64,000 nucleotides of DNA from a virus (taxonomy: Duplodnaviria > Heunggongvirae > Uroviricota > Caudoviricetes): the IMG/VR virus record IMGVR_UViG_2706796243_000001. One strand, 5' to 3'. This document shows positions 1 to 55,488 of this stretch, piece after piece. Position 1 is the stretch's first letter, and every line of letters begins with the position of its first letter. The translations under genes were made by a program, and so were the position numbers. The notes beneath the pieces were generated by a model. That model had not been told where the DNA came from, did no database searches, and was given only the letters and a program-made list of their open reading frames with translations.

Positions 1-75
1 TTTTTACCATACAGGGTAGGCGAACGTACAGCTATTTATTAAAACGCCTCACAAAGCGATACAGGAGCTTTTAAG

Positions 76-921
76 ATGACAACCGTTTTCCACACCACAG
101 AGATTCTCGATCATACACAGAACGAATACCCTCACCCGGATCTTGAATCCGAGTTACTCAAGATATTTGAGCGCACAGAGCACGAGCTATCTTACCTTGA
201 ATTTTCAACTGATGAAGATGATGAGGCAGAGTTTAACAAACGACACGGGAATGTAGAGTCTGAGCTTTCTGAACTGAAGGATATAGCGAAGGGTTCAGAG
301 CTTTATGACTATAAGAATTATGTCACCCAACTGGAAGCGCTTGTCGTTACTCTCACAGACTCCCTGATCTCTGTTGGCAAACGGGCAGATACCCTGAGTA
401 AAGATATTTTGTCTGTTGATAACAAGATGGGTCGTGCAGAAATCTCGGATGAGTTTTTGTATCTGTCGGGAGAAGCGGTAAGGGAATTTAACACAGACTC
501 CAGCCTTTACAGCGCTCTTGAGTCTCGCGGTTGGAATAAGTTTCAGCGTGGTTTTGTTTTCAACATCATTCAGGAAGAGAGAACTGGTTACGCAGGTTCT
601 ATTGTTGTTGAGCTTATGCTGCATGGGAGCACTGCAAACAATATGGTTGTTGGTGTTCAGGACTGGATCACTCTTTGCGGTAAGACACTGTGTTTATGTG
701 ACGGTGATGATACCTTAAGAATAGATGCTGTCAATGGGAGCATTGATATTATCTTGACGAAGGATAAAAAGGTCTATCGCTTCAGGCTCTCAGAGATGAA
801 GGATCTTTTCATGGACGTGATGAATCCAACTGATGATGAAATCCTGATGTATAAAATGTCGCACCATGCAGAGTATGATATTTGTGGGTGGAGAGAGACT
901 TTCGGAAAGAAACCAAAATGA
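76..921 (+). CDS. hypothetical protein (281 aa)
   Basis: Long ORF with an upstream AGGAG-like site at ~63-70; no recognisable motifs. Confidence 0.5.
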   Translation: MTTVFHTTEILDHTQNEYPHPDLESELLKIFERTEHELSYLEFSTDEDDEAEFNKRHGNVESELSELKDIAKGSELYDYKNYVTQLEALVVTLTDSLISVGKRADTLSKDILSVDNKMGRAEISDEFLYLSGEAVREFNTDSSLYSALESRGWNKFQRGFVFNIIQEERTGYAGSIVVELMLHGSTANNMVVGVQDWITLCGKTLCLCDGDDTLRIDAVNGSIDIILTKDKKVYRFRLSEMKDLFMDVMNPTDDEILMYKMSHHAEYDICGWRETFGKKPK

Positions 922-948
922 AAACCGTGTGATATTTAGGAGGAAGGT

Positions 949-1536
949 ATGAGTTTAGATTTGGAAATGGAATCGAAACCATCTACAAAACATCGTAGTT
1001 TAGTATGTGGTGTTGGCATAAACGATGCACCGTTTATCACGAGTATGCGGAAAGATGGAAAACTCCATCACCATACGGCCTACAAGGATTGGCACAATAT
1101 GATAAACAGATGCTACAGCGGTAAATACCCCTCTTATCATGGGGTTGTTGTGGTCGATAAGTGGCATTATTTTATGAACTTTCATACATGGTGGTGCAAC
1201 AATTATCAACAAGGATATGCACTTGACAAAGATTTGCTGGTAGAAGGGAACAAGGCTTACGGCCCTGATACTTGTATTTACATCCCTGTGTGGTTGAACA
1301 GTTATATTTCTCGAAATGGAAAACATGCAAGAGGTGTAACATTTGACAAAAAACTTTGTAAGTTCAAGGCACAGAGATCTAAAAATGACCCAAGGGGAAG
1401 GTATATAGGATATTTTGACACAGAGGAAGAGGCACATGCTGCATGGGAATCTGAGAATATATTTGATAACGACCTGAAATCACTTGATATTTCTCTTCAA
1501 GAACTTGTTTTGAAACGGTACGGTTTTTCAAAATGA
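949..1536 (+). CDS. putative freestanding homing-endonuclease-like protein with C-terminal AP2-type DNA-binding domain
   Basis: RBS GGAGGAAGG before the ATG. W-x2-M-x2-RC...Y.GV.V...W..F..F..W block followed by a GRYIGYFDTEEEAHAAWE AP2-like segment. Paralog of the ORF at 52611..53252. Confidence 0.5.
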   Translation: MSLDLEMESKPSTKHRSLVCGVGINDAPFITSMRKDGKLHHHTAYKDWHNMINRCYSGKYPSYHGVVVVDKWHYFMNFHTWWCNNYQQGYALDKDLLVEGNKAYGPDTCIYIPVWLNSYISRNGKHARGVTFDKKLCKFKAQRSKNDPRGRYIGYFDTEEEAHAAWESENIFDNDLKSLDISLQELVLKRYGFSK

Positions 1537-1801
1537 TATTTGTTTGCCCTTGATATTTGTCGGGGAATTTTGAACTGGAAATCAAAATGAAATTCGAAAT
1601 GGTTTTTGAAATGGTTTTCCCTCATAGCCGGGTTGTAAATCCATTTTATTGTGATTTAAGATTTTGGAAAGTACAGCAACTTATCCCAAACCCCACCCAT
1701 GCAACATAATGATTACTAATGGAATTTCCATGCCCCGGTACGATAATTGTGGCAAAATTCCAGAAATGTTAAATCCCTTTTGTTGGGTTTTAAGTCCGAG
1801 T

Positions 1802-2005
1802 ACTCGATCAAGTTTTCGATTTCAAAATCGTATTTTTTCTTTATCGCTGAAAAAATTTTTCTGGATAACACTGGGTACTCGATCGGTTTTTCAAAATCGA
1901 AAACGTATTTTTTCTGTCTATCGAAAAAATTTTTCCGCGCGGTTCTCGATCGAGTTTTCAGTTTTGAAAACGTATTTTTTCTATAGAGCGAAAAAATTTT
2001 TTAGG
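1802..2005. repeat. three tandem ~70-bp direct repeats (CTCGATCNAGTTTTC...AAAACGTATTTTTTCT...GAAAAAATTTTT)
   Basis: Repeat units begin at about 1802, 1877 and 1945. Each unit carries A/T tracts and near-palindromes (CGATTTCAAAATCG, GAAAAAATTTTTC). Confidence 0.8.
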
Positions 2006-2349
2006 GATCGGTAATTTTCTCACACACGCACACGCGATGTCAAGAGAAATTTTTTGTTGAATGAGAATCATTCTCATTTGCAGAATAGCGGGCAGGTTCG
2101 GTGTTTGTCTCGCGATTCCCGTTACCCCTCGCCATGTGTAAATAATAGCATAACCACTCCACGGATCAAGCGTCTTTACAAATCTTTACAAATGTCATCA
2201 GGTCGAACTACCGGCGATCCACCTTCCGACCTGGCACCCGCGCCCGGTACGTTAGCCCCGCCTTTTCGCCGTGGGGTGGCGTTTCCTCTTCTTTGAACTA
2301 ACTATAACCCAGGGCCGCGCCGATTGCAAGCCCCAGGACCAAATATTTT

Positions 2350-2532
2350 TTACAGGGTATCCGCTAAAACTTCCCCGTTTTCCGCTACCACTTTCGCCCG
2401 GTAGAATCCGCCGTTAAGCATACGCAAGGCATGAGGCAACGGCACCGATCTAGACTGACAATGATTTGCTGATGTTTCCCAGGTGAAAAGGGTCACCATT
2501 GTTTCGCTTGTTACTACGTTTACGTTTTCCAT
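2350..2532 (-). CDS. hypothetical small protein (60 aa), divergently transcribed
   Basis: The minus-strand sequence upstream reads GGGTAAAGAAAATG (the same SD type as the plus-strand early genes) with a TTGCAT-17-ACTATA promoter-like sequence. Confidence 0.35.
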   Translation of the reverse strand: MENVNVVTSETMVTLFTWETSANHCQSRSVPLPHALRMLNGGFYRAKVVAENGEVLADTL

Positions 2533-2639
2533 TTTCTTTACCCGCCGTTGTTGTCTCAGTCCTTATATAGTACACGATCCCCGCCAGGATGCAACAAGTA
2601 TAAAGGAAAAACTTTTTTAAAAATTTTTGTCCTGGGGTA

Positions 2640-2668
2640 TTGACGGGAGTTAGTAAGCCGTTTACTAT
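2640..2668 (+). promoter_or_regulatory. sigma70-like early promoter TTGACG-17-TACTAT
   Basis: -35/-10 hexamers with a 17-nt spacer, upstream of the 2720 ORF. Confidence 0.5.
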
Positions 2669-2719
2669 GTATCACATCAGGGCGACACACCGACGCCCCA
2701 CACTGAAAAGGTAAAGCAA

Positions 2720-3250
2720 ATGGACACTATCGAAACTTTCAATTATTCCGAAAACGGCATTGATTTTAGCGTTGACGTTGTATGCTTTAATACAAATGAT
2801 ACATTTGGCGATGAGTGGGAATTGACCGACGATCACCAGGGCGGGGTCACTGTAAAGAATCCTAACGCGGATCGCAATAGTTATAAATATGCTATCCCGT
2901 TACAATACAGCCTGAAAGAGCGGATCGCAGACTTGATCGCCCGTGGTGATGATAACCCATCGCGCCACGCTTACGAGGCCGCACAGGACGCTTTGGAGCG
3001 CGATTTAAACGCCAGTGATTATGGTTTCAGTGTGACCGCCACCGCGAACGGGATCACCCTCCTGGATAATGAGATTATTGGTTGTAGTTTTACCTATTCA
3101 TACCAGGACGAAAGCGATTTGTTGACCGAAGCAAAAGAAGTTTACAACGGCAACGGGATCAACGGTGAAGCGCTGGACGCTGCAAAAAAGGCAGGCGCGG
3201 AGATCATCGCAAACTTTGACGGCCTGAAAAATATTTTAGAAAAAGCTTGA
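2720..3250 (+). CDS. hypothetical protein (176 aa)
   Basis: AAAGGTAAAGCAAATG RBS/start; acidic protein. Confidence 0.55.
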   Translation: MDTIETFNYSENGIDFSVDVVCFNTNDTFGDEWELTDDHQGGVTVKNPNADRNSYKYAIPLQYSLKERIADLIARGDDNPSRHAYEAAQDALERDLNASDYGFSVTATANGITLLDNEIIGCSFTYSYQDESDLLTEAKEVYNGNGINGEALDAAKKAGAEIIANFDGLKNILEKA

Positions 3251-3275
3251 TCACCAAGTCCGGATCGGTTATCTT
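3247..3275 (+). promoter_or_regulatory. PeSL-type promoter TTGATC-17(..CGGATCGGT)-TATCTT
   Basis: The conserved CGGATCGGT spacer core is shared with the promoters at 4400 and 8473. Confidence 0.5.
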
Positions 3276-3282
3276 ACTAACA

Positions 3283-3302
3283 AGCCGGGGACGCGCCCCG
3301 GC
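3283..3302 (+). repeat. PeSL stem-loop GCCGGGG-ACGC-CCCCGGC
   Basis: Perfect GC-rich inverted repeat in the 5' leader of the next ORF. Confidence 0.7.
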
Positions 3303-3322
3303 ACTAACGAGAGGTAAACAAA

Positions 3323-3562
3323 ATGGAAACATTATTGATTGACAATGACGGGTCTTTGTTGGCGGAAGTTACGGCGATTGACGCGCCTTTGTGGTGGCAA
3401 CAAAAGGGGCTAACCAAAACCCGATCCGGGTATGGGACCAAGATCCCTACACAATGGAAAGTTAATTTCCAGGGGCGTGATCGTCGGGTATACGTTGATC
3501 AATATAGTAACGCCGGACACACTTATATAATTGTGAAAGGTCAAAAAATAACTGTAAGATAA
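3323..3562 (+). CDS. hypothetical protein (79 aa)
   Basis: GAGAGGTAAACAAAATG RBS/start. Confidence 0.5.
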   Translation: METLLIDNDGSLLAEVTAIDAPLWWQQKGLTKTRSGYGTKIPTQWKVNFQGRDRRVYVDQYSNAGHTYIIVKGQKITVR

Positions 3563-3565
3563 TTG

Positions 3566-3595
3566 TTGACGCTGGCTAATGTGTGGGGTTATAAT
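3566..3595 (+). promoter_or_regulatory. sigma70-like promoter TTGACG-18-TATAAT
   Basis: Consensus hexamers upstream of the 3647 start. Confidence 0.55.
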
Positions 3596-3646
3596 CTCCA
3601 CACATTGACAAGCGAAACAAATCAACCACACAAACGAGGTTACACC

Positions 3647-4398
<752 letters not shown>

Positions 4399-4399
4399 C

Positions 4400-4428
4400 T
4401 TGCAAACCATCGGCGGATCGGTTACATT
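4400..4428 (+). promoter_or_regulatory. PeSL-type promoter TTGCAA-17(..CGGATCGGT)-TACATT
   Basis: Same architecture as the promoters at 3247 and 8473. Confidence 0.5.
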
Positions 4429-4437
4429 ATTAATCAA

Positions 4438-4456
4438 GGCGGGAGAGGTTCCCGCC
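4438..4456 (+). repeat. PeSL stem-loop GGCGGGAG-AGG-TTCCCGCC
   Basis: Inverted repeat immediately after the promoter and before AAAGGTAAAGAAAATG. Confidence 0.65.
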
Positions 4457-4476
4457 AGACTGAAAAGGTAAAGAAA

Positions 4477-4875
4477 ATGGCAAAGTTTAAAACATCTATC
4501 AATCTGTATGACGCTGTAAACCGCCTGGCCTCATTGTCACGCACGAACCAAACCGGGGATTTTTTCGTTGTTGTTGATTCCTTTGATTTTGGTCGCGATG
4601 TTAACGGAAACACGATCAACAAATACCGCGCCACGCTTCACCGTGGGGATCTGGTATCCGTCCAAAATGGTTACACTGGTTTCGGTGTGCTGGTCCTGGA
4701 GTCGCCCCGTCGCCGGGAACAATCACACAACGAAGGGCAAAGCGCAGCGCTTTACTGGCTTGAAAAAATCGGTTATGATCTGGCTTATGAATCAATGACC
4801 GAAGCGCCCCACACTAAAAAGCGCGCTTATCGCCATGTGTACCGGGTAACTAACAATTATTTAAAGGCGGTGTGA
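4477..4875 (+). CDS. hypothetical protein (132 aa)
   Basis: AAAAGGTAAAGAAAATG RBS/start. Confidence 0.55.
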   Translation: MAKFKTSINLYDAVNRLASLSRTNQTGDFFVVVDSFDFGRDVNGNTINKYRATLHRGDLVSVQNGYTGFGVLVLESPRRREQSHNEGQSAALYWLEKIGYDLAYESMTEAPHTKKRAYRHVYRVTNNYLKAV

Positions 4876-4876
4876 A

Positions 4877-5062
4877 ATGGTCGTAAGCATGGATAACGGG
4901 CAAGTTTTAACGATCTTTAATTCTGCAAACCGCACAATTGAGGACGTAAAGCAAGAGGCAAGCCAACGGATCGACAATCTAAAGATCCCCGGTAAGCTGT
5001 TAGATGATAGCTTGAAAGTGATCGCCGCTTTCGATTCTTTCGGGAAAGAAATCATTAAATAA
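4877..5062 (+). CDS. hypothetical small protein (61 aa)
   Basis: ATG two nt after the preceding stop, with AAGGCGG upstream. Confidence 0.35.
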   Translation: MVVSMDNGQVLTIFNSANRTIEDVKQEASQRIDNLKIPGKLLDDSLKVIAAFDSFGKEIIK

Positions 5063-5158
5063 TTGTTGACTCTTAATAGGTGGGGCTTTAAGATAAGCCC
5101 TACCAAGTAAGAGAAATAACCCGGCAATAATGCCAAACCAAACAAAAGGTAAATTATC

Positions 5159-5725
5159 ATGAATAACAAAATCACTTTCAACGATCAAGATGTTGCCGTT
5201 TTCAACTTCCTGAAAGAAAAAGGGATTGATTTTAAAGCGGTATATGGTGGCGTTAACAACGATCCAGAATGGCAAGCTGATTTGTTTTTCGTGAGTTTCG
5301 AAAAAGGCGGGAAGATTTACCGCTCTGAATTTAAAACGGGAACGGGTCACCGTGTAGGCCGTCACACTGGCTTAACCCCAACCGACGCAAGAGAATTAGC
5401 TAAAGTTGATGCTAAGGTTTCCATCGTTGATCAAAATAACTGGACACGCGACGATTACAAGCGCAACGACAATAAAGCAATGTCTTTCGGTTACCGTGTT
5501 TATGTTGCGACACCTTGCGCCGCAAACGTGCTTTCCTGCCTGCTGTCAGATATTGATCTGGGATCTGAATCTCATGCTGATTTTTGCGCTAATATGGGCT
5601 ATGATGAGGATAGCCGCAAAGGTTTAGAGATTTATCTTGCTTGTCAGAAGACGGGCGAGGAACTCCGCAAAGTGTTTACAGGTGAAGACCTGGAGACACT
5701 CCGCGAGATGTTAGAGGATTATTAA
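5159..5725 (+). CDS. hypothetical protein (188 aa)
   Basis: AAAAGGTAAATTATCATG RBS/start, preceded by a TTGACT promoter-like sequence and the hairpin GGGCTT/AAGCCC (5082-5100). Confidence 0.55.
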   Translation: MNNKITFNDQDVAVFNFLKEKGIDFKAVYGGVNNDPEWQADLFFVSFEKGGKIYRSEFKTGTGHRVGRHTGLTPTDARELAKVDAKVSIVDQNNWTRDDYKRNDNKAMSFGYRVYVATPCAANVLSCLLSDIDLGSESHADFCANMGYDEDSRKGLEIYLACQKTGEELRKVFTGEDLETLREMLEDY

Positions 5726-5727
5726 AA

Positions 5728-6075
5728 GTGTTTAAAATCCTGTTTTTGGTGGCTGCTGCTGCTATCTACTGGAAGATCCCCGCCAGGTTATGGCGGGGCC
5801 TGCTGTGGGTTTATTATGAATACAGGATCGGCAAAGTGTACCATTATTTAGAATACAGATTCCACGGGAACCACTACCACACCCGGCGATCTGGTCCGTT
5901 AAATGATCTTGAGGGTAACGGCTTATTGTGTGAAGTGAAAAAGCGGGGCGGAGTAGTCACGTATCACAAAGAAGGCACAAAGGAGCAGATCGCGGAGATC
6001 ATCGAATGGCGAGCTAATGAATTAGCCGAGAAACAAGGCCGGATCTTTGAACATGCAAACAACAACCGAAAATAA
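5728..6075 (+). CDS. hypothetical protein, N-terminal TM helix (GTG start)
   Basis: GTG start eight nt after GAGGA; hydrophobic N-terminus. Confidence 0.35.
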   Translation: MFKILFLVAAAAIYWKIPARLWRGLLWVYYEYRIGKVYHYLEYRFHGNHYHTRRSGPLNDLEGNGLLCEVKKRGGVVTYHKEGTKEQIAEIIEWRANELAEKQGRIFEHANNNRK

Positions 6076-7735: not shown

Positions 7736-8077
7736 ATGGAACTTGCAAATAAATTCTTTTTCCTGGCTGGCGTTTCCGATAATGCAAAATGTGATTTTCG
7801 TCGTTTCGATGATAAAACCTTAATGCGTTTTTGCCATGTTAATGACGCTGTGAACGGGGATCGCCTGGACATTATGATCCGCACGGAAACAACCATTGAT
7901 CACGCATCACAGCAGGCAGTAAAAGATCATTACGTGTCTTATCAGCTTGAAGGCGCGAAAGGCTACGTAAAGCAGGCTGACAGCTTGCCGATCCGTCAAT
8001 CTGTGGACGTGTTCGCCGTGGTTGTTGCGATTGTGAATGATGTTTTTCCGGTTGACTCTGAAAACCAGATCGGCTAA
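7736..8077 (+). CDS. hypothetical protein (113 aa)
   Basis: ACGAGG RBS. Confidence 0.5.
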   Translation: MELANKFFFLAGVSDNAKCDFRRFDDKTLMRFCHVNDAVNGDRLDIMIRTETTIDHASQQAVKDHYVSYQLEGAKGYVKQADSLPIRQSVDVFAVVVAIVNDVFPVDSENQIG

Positions 8078-8089
8078 AGTATTCTTAAA

Positions 8090-8109
8090 GGCCGGGGATC
8101 GCCCCCGGT
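8090..8109 (+). repeat. PeSL stem-loop GGCCGGGG-ATCG-CCCCCGGTC
   Basis: GC inverted repeat in the leader of the 8132 ORF. Confidence 0.65.
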
Positions 8110-8131
8110 CATAATGGGAAGGTAAAGATTT

Positions 8132-8464
8132 ATGAAAAATAAAAATGTTTATTGGTCATCCTCATGCGGTCGCCTTTGTCTCATCTTTCGGGACCGTGAG
8201 CAGGTAGAAGAGATCGCCCACTCTGGGGACTGTGAAGCGTCAACGGTGGAGGCCCTGCCTTATTTCCGGGACGGCTTACAGTTTAGCGCATACAGCGACC
8301 AAATGATCCGCGATTACCTGGCCGAAACAGGGATCGAGCGTGAAGGGGTAGACGGGATCGACAATATGGATCGCCACACCCTGGAAATGTACCTGCTATG
8401 GATCGCCGCTGGTGATATGCTGGACATTTTCAACGTTGGCGATGATTACGGCGAGGATGAATAA
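8132..8464 (+). CDS. hypothetical acidic protein (110 aa)
   Basis: GGGAAGGTAAAGATTTATG. Confidence 0.5.
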   Translation: MKNKNVYWSSSCGRLCLIFRDREQVEEIAHSGDCEASTVEALPYFRDGLQFSAYSDQMIRDYLAETGIEREGVDGIDNMDRHTLEMYLLWIAAGDMLDIFNVGDDYGEDE

Positions 8465-9941: not shown

Positions 9942-9974
9942 GGCCAAAATCTTTACAAAACCAGGGCTTGCTTT

Positions 9975-10172
9975 ATGGCTGTTTTGTCAAGTGTTTTTTA
10001 TGGCTGGATTGCCTGCCTTGTACTCAGTGACGCAACGGCCCAGACAGTTAACACCATGATCGACGGCTTGCAATTGGCGTTTTATTGTGTGGTGAAATAT
10101 CACAGATTTAAACGGTTCGACCGTTATGATCTACCGTTCATCATTGCCGGATCACTGGCTATCATGTTGTAA
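9975..10172 (+). CDS. hypothetical membrane protein (65 aa)
   Basis: Two hydrophobic segments; followed by a terminator. Confidence 0.4.
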   Translation: MAVLSSVFYGWIACLVLSDATAQTVNTMIDGLQLAFYCVVKYHRFKRFDRYDLPFIIAGSLAIML

Positions 10173-10176
10173 GTAA

Positions 10177-10200
10177 GGCCGGGAATTGTCCCGGCTTTTG
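10177..10200 (+). terminator. rho-independent terminator (GGCCGGGAAT-TG-TCCCGGC + TTTTG)
   Basis: Hairpin of the PeSL family plus a T-run, closing the plus-strand early block. Confidence 0.65.
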
Positions 10201-12322
10201 CATATCACACAAACACCCCAAACACAACACCAAATCTTTACCCGCTTTTATGTTGGTTGCAATATCGCAACTGAGAATTATTCTCACCAACCCCGTTGGC
10301 AATTATGCAAAAAAGTGAATTTAAAGAGATCCCAGGAAAGGAATATAACGGCAAGGCTAACGAGAAAACACGCTCAAAACTCGTTATATTGCGTTTAAAA
10401 GGGTATTGCTTATCGCCTTTGACCCACTAACACCCCAAAATTGATAACGCATGTTATCAACTGAATAAAACACGCATTTTTAAGCGTTTCATGTGAATAC
10501 GTGATAATAACTCTCATTTGATAACTTTTCTCATCTAAGCCATTGTGTGAACTGTCTTTTTTGAGCATAAAAATAAAATCTTGTCAAATAAAATAATCGT
10601 TCGCGTGATCGTGGTGAGTGGCGCGAGCGTAGCGAGCGACACTATAACACGAGAGTAACTCAAATGATAATACTTATCATTTTCGTTCGCGTTATCGTGG
10701 CTCGTAGACGCTACGATATAATCACATACGTGATTAAGCAACGGCTAATCATTTACATTATTATTCATTTACAATGAATAGTTACACAATGAAATTATCA
10801 CACTCGCCACGATAACACCGATCAACTAACGTTGATCGCTCTCGTGTTATAGTGTCCAGATAAAGGGGATTCACAAAACCCCTTTGGTCAATCTGGACAT
10901 TGTTTTCCGTGGCGAAAACAACCCGTAAGGGCTTTGTGTTATAGTGTCGCGAGGTGATGAAAGTCAAGATCTTTTTATTAGCAATAAATCGCCGTTAATG
11001 GTTGACAAACCATGATTAATCGATCTGTAAATCAGGCCGCTGGCCTGCTGAAAGGCTTGTTTTTGAGCATAAAAGATGCCTCAAGTGTCAAGCTTTTTCT
11101 TGATAGGAAAAGTCTATTAATCCCTTGTGTAGCAATACAGAAAATAGTTACAATAAGTAACTATTTCAATGCTTTAGCATTGCCGGGTATCCGGTCCATC
11201 ACAGGGCTAAACGAGAATTGTTATCATGTGGCAAAATGCTCAAAAGCAGAGTATTGCTAAAAACAATTTTCCCTCCCTGTCAAGTGTTTTGTGCGAAATT
11301 TACAAAATATTTTTATTTGCGGAATGATTTTCATTTAGAAATTGAAATGAAAATCGAAATTATAATGATTATGAAAAGCATTATCATCTACAAAACACCC
11401 CACAAAATGAATAATAACAGGTGTAAACTGTCACAGTGGTAACATATAGCAGGCTAATCATCGTCATAGTAATGGTTCATTGATGCAATGGTAACATAGT
11501 GCAACTATCACCCATGCAACAGTCCGATCTGTGGTGCGTATAACGTGTATTATGTTAAATAGACCAACCCACACAAAAGTAAGCAAGTCAAGGGCAAATC
11601 GTGCTGTAAGCTGGCTAATCAATCAAATCATCATAGTTTCATTAGGCAATCATTAGTCACACAAGTAATCATCATGCAATCATCGTGCCAAAAACTCGCA
11701 AGGGTCTCGACATCGGACCACTCAGATATTTTGTAAAGATCCTTGACAACCTTCGGGGGCTGTGATTGTCCGTCTAGCACATCAGACATAGAGCCAACGG
11801 ATATTTTTCGTCCCCAAGAGATACAAGACAGGGCCTCTTTTATTTCCCTCCGGGCGGGGGAGGGGTGGGTTTTGATATGTTTACCCGTATACGGGTTAGC
11901 CTGTGGCTAATCGCCCTGCGATATGTTTACAGCATCGACACTTCAGGCTACATGTGTCGAAGAAATGCAATTCCTTAAACATGTTGTGTTGCAGAGCAAT
12001 GAACGAGTTCACCCGTGCAACGGGCATTGTGTGTTAATGAAATGTACAACCTTTCACGCAGGAGCGGTGGTACAGTTCAACAATCAGGACATCCAACGTC
12101 CGTAAAGATTGTTGAATGAGAATTATTCAATTCTCAGGTGCAAGGCACCCTTGGTGTTTGTTTCGTGCAGACCTTCAGCACCTGTGACTCTTTAGGTAAT
12201 AGTAGCAGGGCTGACAGTTTACGTCAAGAGGAAATTGATGTGCCTCTTTAGACAAAATTGATGGGACTCTTCAGGCAGGAATAGAGGAGCCACTTCAGGC
12301 TCCCCTTGTGTGGTGGGTCACT

Positions 12323-55156: not shown

Positions 55157-55488
55157 TCTCCTCTAAAACGATAGGAGCATTGTACATGAACAAAACGAGA
55201 AGTCAACTCTTGACAACAGATTTTTGTTCATCCATACTGACCCAACTGACCCAACTGAGCCACTGGCTCTATGACTGTAGAATATATAGATCATACTTAA
55301 AGATCTTTTATATAGATCTTATGTTTTATTGTTTTGATTTTAAAAGATCATAAGTTAGTTTAATTGATAGGTTAGTATTGTATTCCTTTTTGGGAATAAT
55401 TAGACATTCCCGATTGGGAATAATTAGGTTGACATCTGCGTTACGTTGGTGTACATTCTAATTATATCTGTTCTGGAATAAATAGGAG

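Follow-up and report, generated by a model that had tools for sequence, protein, structure and literature searches.

In phage T4, the replication origins oriF and oriG, like the primary origin of phage T7, are composed of a promoter and a downstream unwinding element, and T4 oriE and the lambda ori combine repeats with transcription. In phage T5, the iss lies in a 1662-bp non-coding region that bears 66-bp direct repeats and palindromes and is conserved above the neighbouring open reading frames (ORFs; bioRxiv 10.1101/866236), while phage phiTE carries a pseudo-ToxI repeat RNA with 36-nt units of expandable copy number (PMC3475682). For the rV5-like and Felix O1-like phages, we found no experimentally defined replication origin in the literature. 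Here, we analyze an array of three tandem repeats (units U1 to U3, positions 1800-2008) in a 64,000-nucleotide stretch of the virus record IMGVR_UViG_2706796243_000001 (hereafter, the window). The window corresponds to positions 83746-147745 of Salmonella phage SSE121, by coordinates the final 64 kb of its 147.7-kb genome, and the 1.25-kb stretch around the array is 100% identical to both Salmonella phages PVP-SE1 and SSE121. The phage that carries the array belongs to the genus Seunavirus of the subfamily Vequintavirinae and is rV5-like; the T4-like setting assumed in an earlier, sequence-only reading of the window thus had to be abandoned.

The array is almost certainly a functional DNA control site, because it is real, non-coding and better conserved than the adjoining genes, and it is best read as a single-copy, non-coding, protein-binding, cis-acting DNA element. 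Its protein binding, promoter activity and replication role we infer from sequence. Like T4 oriF(uvsY), oriG(34) and oriE and the T7 origin, the locus appears to direct a host-type promoter into A+T-rich, non-coding direct repeats and, as in transcription-primed origins, the array is situated in the early region of a large lytic phage. Among the more specific readings we tentatively rank first that it may be a transcription-activated replication origin, because it is a unique site, under strong constraint, with a promoter reading into A+T-rich repeats.

Tandem Repeats Finder reported a repeat at 1874-2001 (period 67, 1.9 copies, 81% matches, score 179), and an in-register repeat search located three 67-nt copies at 1800, 1875 and 1942, spaced by 75 and 67 nt, with copies 2 and 3 being 70% and 78% identical to copy 1. 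Three tandem repeats of about 70 bp had been noted from the sequence before, and they are indeed present, their starts displaced by 2-3 nt from those then given (1802, 1877 and 1945). No tandem repeat with a period of at least 30 arose in 60 simulated 64-kb sequences, 30 of which had the composition of the window and 30 that of the local AT-rich segment.

All three units contain, in the same order, CTCGATC, TTTTC, AAAA(T/C)CGTATTTTTTCT and GAAAAAATTTTT, and thus the previously described pattern CTCGATC...TTTTC. An alignment of the units yielded three consensus boxes, box A (GTWCTCGATCG), box B (AAAAYCGTATTTTTTCT) and box C (GAAAAAATTTTT), all of which are partly palindromic. U1 (75 bp, 1800-1874) bears box A GTACTCGATCA at 1800-1810, box B AAAATCGTATTTTTTCT at 1824-1840 and box C GAAAAAATTTTTC at 1849-1861. 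In U2 (67 bp, 1875-1941), the corresponding elements are GTACTCGATCG (1875-1885), AAAACGTATTTTTTCT (1900-1915) and again GAAAAAATTTTTC (1923-1935), and in U3 (67 bp, 1942-2008) they are GTTCTCGATCG (1942-1952), AAAACGTATTTTTTCT (1967-1982) and GAAAAAATTTTTT (1990-2002), the box A of U3 falling inside a palindrome, CTCGATCGAG. The internal palindromes that had been pointed out were found in U1 as CGATTTCAAAATCG (1817-1830) and GAAAAAATTTTTC (1849-1861). In the units of pEp_SNUABM_01 and rV5, box B reads AAAATGGATTTTC. A CRISPR-like array was considered and rejected, as similarity spans the whole unit and repeats do not alternate with spacers.

The array is 68% A+T. A/T tracts phased at about 10 bp had been proposed, together with DNA bending, and neither proposal was borne out. 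AA/TT dinucleotides showed no power at 10-10.5 bp; their sole peak, at 11 bp, was weak and represents the sixth harmonic of the 67-bp unit. Predicted curvature, calculated with a wedge model, amounted to at most about 18 degrees per 30 bp, compared to a genome 99th percentile of 22.5.

Motifs resembling box B extend beyond the units. Two tandem 12-bp mini-repeats, GAAATGGTTTT(T/C), occupy 1596-1618 on the plus strand (reported by Tandem Repeats Finder as GAAATGGTTTTT, 1.9 copies) and are kept in relatives; they represent the adjacent GAAATGG mini-repeats of the sequence-only reading and are of the same motif family as the unit core. The motif AAATGG[AT]TTT occurs just three times in the 147.7-kb genome, always within 1597-1646. 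A 25-bp repeat, TAAATCCATTTTATTGTGATTTAAG, lies on the minus strand at 1636-1660; its reverse strand, AAAATGGATTTA, constitutes an inverted box-B-like site, and it is conserved in Seunavirus. Its second copy, 84% identical and also on the minus strand, immediately precedes U1 (1770-1794). In total, four further box-B-like sites are found within 200 bp left of the array, giving seven sites of about 11-16 bp in 400 bp, an iteron-like arrangement, though the motif is loose. Judged by these sequences, the flanking mini-repeats and the unit core (box B) form one motif family. In addition, two copies of TGATATTTGT, 17 bp apart, mark the left edge of the gene-free gap that houses the array (1534-1560, plus strand), with two to three copies in relatives. 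The unit and its motifs are single-copy and occur nowhere else in the 147.7-kb genome, a pattern more in keeping with a unique site, for instance an origin, than with a promoter or terminator signal of general use.

Exactly three units were found in Seunavirus (GAP31, LNA4, SalP219, 4MG and EC152), Mydovirus (Mydo and KpS8), Avunavirus (Av-05), Henunavirus (pEp_SNUABM_01, hereafter pEp01) and Certrevirus (P7_Pc and CR3), while the copy in rV5 is degenerate. Of the 11 Vequintavirinae-like IMG/VR contigs recovered by a motif scan, 10 gave three profile matches, and only two units were detected in the eleventh. Unit spacing is 74-76 and then 67 bp in Seunavirus, Mydovirus and Avunavirus, 74 and 71 bp in Henunavirus, and 78 and 63 bp in Certrevirus. 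In 18 of 21 cases, the best match of a unit in another genome was the unit with the same index; this positional orthology indicates that the triplication is old and stable and that the array is not a variable-number repeat.

Array identity to GAP31, Mydo, Av-05 and pEp01 amounts to 84.8, 77.5, 70.3 and 65.4%, respectively, compared to 56.9, 45.7, 48.2 and 37.2% for the upstream gene, gp205, and 70, 48, 41 and 45% for the left flank. By these sequence comparisons, the array is under strong purifying selection and better conserved than the adjoining genes. The repeat is thus strongly conserved at this locus in related phages, a point on which the earlier reading could have failed, as it could have if the region had turned out to be a coding exon.

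The array resides in a 1.18-kb gene-free gap (1537-2719) beside a promoter cluster, bounded on the left by an HNH/AP2 homing endonuclease gene (949-1536) and on the right by gp200 (2720-3250); the syntenic upstream gene is gp205 (76-918). Relatives that lack the endonuclease have an equal gap of about 1.2 kb immediately after the gp205 homologue. Annotation of the gap differs among genomes, the SSE121 RefSeq record being blank across it and PVP-SE1 having gp202 (1730-2014) over the repeats. The idea that the array is a coding exon, namely gp202, draws on an open frame that runs across the array in SSE121 and PVP-SE1, on annotation in PVP-SE1, GAP31, Mydo and KpS8, and on a match to phrog_25933. 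Against it, each of the three forward frames is interrupted by stops within the array in GAP31, LNA4, SalP219 and rV5, the 67-bp period is not divisible by three, gp202 has no Pfam match, the region is unannotated in the SSE121 RefSeq record and the GAP31 annotators remarked on the poor ribosome-binding site. The stops in these four relatives rule out a coding exon, to which we assign next to no probability, and gp202 is spurious. The non-coding junction that had been described therefore holds up.

A candidate leftward promoter of the sigma-70 type, P_L, is located at 2014-2043 on the minus strand (TTGACA at 2043-2038, an 18-nt spacer and TGaGAAAAT at 2022-2014). It scored 10/12 in the promoter scan, with a TG motif; its activity is deduced from the motif. 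Transcription would start near 2007, at the edge of U3, and would cross the array. Across four genera, seven genomes keep the extended -10 element at a distance of 4-8 bp from the U3 end, whereas their spacer sequences diverge. Reading downstream of P_L, no ATG is encountered in the sequence for about 280 nt. Inside the units, no sigma-70 promoters were seen by eye or in the promoter scan.

With P_L reading into the repeats, the array might form the body of a minus-strand, non-coding RNA with three A-rich/U-rich modules, antisense to read-through from the upstream operon or serving as a sponge that titrates a toxin or an RNA-binding protein of the host. The conservation of P_L and its predicted start exactly at the U3 edge would agree with this idea, as would single-sequence folds compared to shuffles (z = -3.2 for the minus strand; z = -1.5 for the plus strand), and the pseudo-ToxI RNA provides a precedent in a relative (PMC3475682). 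As at our locus, that tandem repeat occupies a non-coding gap in a phage of the same subfamily. Unlike its expandable 36-nt units, the units of the array are 67-75 bp long and their number is fixed at three in all genomes, at odds with an antitoxin array. Moreover, pseudo-ToxI sits elsewhere, between tRNA genes and the terminase gene; a correspondence of the two loci was rejected, as the phiTE repeat (106714-106772, between tRNA-Tyr and phiTE_203 near the terminase gene) is not syntenic with the array. RNAalifold applied to the plus-strand alignment gave -11.7 kcal/mol with a covariation term of +0.95, that is, no conserved structure or covariation. An Rfam scan of positions 1-6000 (E of 1 or below) returned no match and no terminator is evident for such an RNA. 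We therefore consider an RNA of this kind unlikely.

Tandem intrinsic terminators that close the upstream operon were also weighed, as a T6...A6 inverted repeat precedes a T run in each unit and U1 of Av-05 has a strong hairpin with a T-run (-12 kcal/mol). The hairpins are only 0 to -5 kcal/mol, however, and are absent in U1 of GAP31, SalP219 and pEp01 and in U1 and U3 of Mydo; none in the array passed a terminator scan, the Certrevirus units are entirely devoid of the A6T6 part, and termination would leave the invariant box A unexplained. Terminators are thus a highly improbable explanation. Together, the positive covariation term of the plus strand and the weak or lost T6/A6 hairpins indicate that constraint acts at the level of the DNA, not the RNA.

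How an origin could work at this site can be outlined from the arrangement of its elements. The array and the four box-B-like sites to its left would constitute a platform of about 400 bp to which proteins bind sequence-specifically. Starting at P_L, 4-8 bp from U3, the host RNA polymerase would move leftward across the array, which melts easily. Once the DNA is opened or hybridised to RNA, a protein of phage or host origin that occupies the boxes might load the phage helicase-primase there. The array also shares features with the iteron origins of lambda, P1 oriR and pSC101, namely repeated, partly palindromic motifs beside A+T-rich DNA and, in most genera, a cluster of GATC sites (4-7 in about 210 bp). 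GATC is frequent in the array but lost in pEp01, so that Dam methylation sites are not essential.

Several observations weigh against an origin. Low duplex stability in the array (z about 2.5; ranks of about 760-1590 for the best windows among some 147,500, or within the top 1.1%) speaks for an origin, yet the least stable DNA of the genome is found elsewhere. Neither DnaA nor IHF consensus sites are conserved across seven genomes, and GC skew does not switch at the array (+0.145 on its left, +0.063 on its right). The 67-75-bp units, composites of three distinct boxes that set the array apart from the T4 and T7 origins, far exceed classical iterons, being about three times as long. Certrevirus retains boxes A and B but lacks box C and the A6T6 part, and P_L is not evident there. 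In contrast to the iteron origins, no recognisable initiator gene adjoins the array, and no homologue of RepEA, RepEB or another initiator was identified. We considered gp205 as a possible initiator; it yielded close homologues only, with no Pfam match, it falls into a PHROG family of unknown function, and its AlphaFold model (predicted local distance difference test score, 48.7) is too unreliable to be used. The iteron-type origin of the sequence-only reading has therefore been retained only in part: the repeats are non-coding and conserved, but they are not 17-22-bp iterons and come without DnaA or IHF sites or a skew switch.

A second region also counts against placing an origin at the array. 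The divergent intergenic region at 55157-55488 contains the least stable DNA genome-wide (z = 4.5 to 5.4) and coincides with the cumulative GC-skew minimum (genome position 139008). It holds three copies of ACTGACCCA, a 13-bp ATATATAGATCTT-like repeat with several AGATC sites, and two copies of GGGAATAATTAG. By its sequence, this region is a competing origin candidate, with a more classical signature than the array.

The surroundings of the array accommodate another reading, according to which it serves as a regulatory or insulating platform of an early promoter hub. It would be bound by an early protein of the phage or by a host nucleoid protein, H-NS for example, that would switch off, roadblock or insulate transcription where rightward transcripts of the upstream operon meet transcripts from P_L and a second leftward promoter, P_L2. 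About 650 bp to the right of the array harbor five candidate promoters (P_L, P_L2, P_R and those of gp201 and gp200) and Fur-like palindromes, the distance from P_L to U3 is fixed, and the boxes are partly palindromic, as is usual for sites of protein dimers. In addition, box C agrees by our count with 10 of 11 positions of the UP-element consensus, and rV5 contains an exact TCGATAAATT, the H-NS nucleation motif; we count both in favor of such a platform. Yet P_L has no conserved ORF downstream for at least 280 nt and hence no obvious regulated gene, and the motifs recur nowhere else in the genome, although one would expect a temporal regulator to act at several promoters. We place this platform second in our ranking, as a possible but doubtful alternative to the transcription-activated origin.

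The remaining candidate promoters of the hub are P_L2 (2169-2142, minus strand), one for gp200 (2640-2668) and P_R, a rightward candidate at 2057-2086 on the plus strand (TTGAAT, an 18-nt spacer and CAGAAT), which is under the scan threshold and represents our own reading of the sequence. P_R is overlapped by a perfect 19-bp palindrome, AATGAGAATCATTCTCATT (2060-2078), that resembles a Fur box and is kept in rV5-like, Certrevirus and Aeromonas phages, with one to four copies in relatives. By our own counts, a palindrome of the relatives, TGATAATCATTCTCA, agrees with the Fur 7-1-7 consensus at 13 of 14 positions, and an rV5 copy, GATAATGATAATCGTTCTC, agrees with the 19-bp Fur box at 17 of 19. 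Elsewhere in the window, Fur-like sites occur at 10270, 10660-10684 and 11361-11385, clustered in a gene-free region near the putative terminal repeat. Such motifs raise the idea that host iron status may control early phage transcription; we found no literature linking Fur boxes to these phages.

Further to the right, a tandem pair of TCTTTACAAA at 2173-2192 is conserved in all genera examined. Additional copies of it border other gene-free regions (genome positions 93695, 95475 and 75253), and no good -10 element follows it. The adjacent segment, 2195-2295, is a near-invariant, G+C-rich block (CGAACTACCGGCGATCCACCTTCCGACC...GCCCCGCCTTTTCGCCGTGGGGTGGCGTTT) that ends in a terminator-like hairpin. 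Klebsiella and Proteus phages have the block at about 75% identity, and in Certrevirus it is present twice. Its sequence makes it a candidate for a small RNA of about 200 nt that the Fur-box promoter would express; RNAalifold lends this weak support (-14 kcal/mol, one compensatory pair) and Rfam gave no match.

The otherwise "non-coding" gap contains one real gene, gp201, a 60-aa ORF on the minus strand (2353-2532) that matches Pfam DUF7170 (E = 6e-26) and phrog_4653 and has no RefSeq annotation in SSE121. To its right, at about 2600-2570, a promoter-like motif read from the alignment (TTGCAT, 17 nt, TACTAT) is conserved. At the opposite edge of the gap, the HNH/AP2 gene sits between gp205 and the gap in SSE121 and PVP-SE1. 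In Certrevirus P7_Pc, a seemingly homologous gene, annotated only as hypothetical, is located at the same junction, and the gene is absent from GAP31, 4MG, SalP219, Mydo and Av-05. The gp205/gap junction thus appears to be a recurrent homing target.

A last possibility is that the array mediates a DNA transaction tied to the virion ends, either as a T5 iss-like injection stop or checkpoint or as a pac site. The array resembles Repeat Region 3 of the T5 iss in several respects (bioRxiv 10.1101/866236): both regions are large, devoid of genes and separated from a chromosome end by a small percentage of the genome (array about 9.5 kb, or about 6.6% of the genome, from a putative end that is deduced only from KPP-1 homology; T5 iss, 7.9%), both combine direct repeats with inverted repeats and palindromes, both are conserved above ORFs and both have HNH endonuclease genes inserted nearby. 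Moreover, two GenBank records, EC152 and RUS_R7, begin within the array, although assemblers breaking at repeats better explain these record starts. By analogy, the array and its flanking motif clusters could be a DNA-entry checkpoint in rV5-like and Felix O1-like phages, which have contractile tails. Small early genes in about 9.5 kb of terminal DNA would enter the cell ahead of the rest and be the first to be expressed, and the platform would hold back the remaining chromosome until it is freed, either by a phage protein or by transcription from P_L.

Unlike the T5 region, however, the array shares no sequence similarity with iss, has no paired DnaA boxes and does not lie inside a long terminal repeat. 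Ten larger proteins encoded in the interval from the array to the putative end showed neither a recognisable function nor a match to A1, A2 or dmp, and two-step injection has not been reported for these phages or any other Vequintavirinae. The terminal repeat is located elsewhere and, on the circular map, about 69 kb separate the array from the terminase gene. Klebsiella phage KPP-1 has a direct terminal repeat of 514 bp (116316-116829; PMC9862379), which maps to about 11035-11621 of the window, some 9 kb to the right of the array, for which reason we rejected the array as a virion terminus or terminal repeat. A 459-bp terminal repeat has been described for phage Gotham (PMC7471380), while other papers report headful packaging, and PVP-SE1 is described as circularly permuted; the literature on packaging mode thus conflicts (PMC7471380, PMC9862379, PMC3475682, PMC13211470). 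We regard a DNA-transaction site as improbable and the more specific entry checkpoint as very improbable. The region homologous to the KPP-1 repeat (9942-11630) is itself a 1.7-kb gene-free region in which rightward and leftward gene clusters converge, and several stretches in it are among the least stable and most curved of the genome. Based on this homology, it is probably the physical end of the virion DNA.

Felix O1, from the subfamily Ounavirinae, has a gp200 homologue with a gap of about 500 bp upstream. The hub part of this region aligns with the Vequintavirinae hub, but the alignment as a whole is weak (mean column identity of 60% over five sequences). In this gap, positions 7978-8239 of the Felix O1 record contain four imperfect copies of a 26-34-bp unit like TTTTTCATTTTCAAAACGTGCAGGTA, followed by a GTCAAGAGAAAAATTT promoter-like motif and a degenerate palindrome. 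The direct repeats of at least 24 bp that are named in the accessible part of the Felix O1 genome paper do not include these imperfect copies. In the literature, we found no paper describing the array; the rV5 paper marks only a "non-coding" box. The comparison suggests that the arrangement of repeats and a promoter hub may predate the split between Vequintavirinae and Ounavirinae.

The array is among the most conserved non-coding sequences of the region examined. As rV5-like and Felix O1-like phages are widely used candidates for biocontrol and therapy, genome engineers should leave the array region undisturbed. Together with the Fur-box-like operators next to it, the array offers an entry point to how these phages begin their programme.

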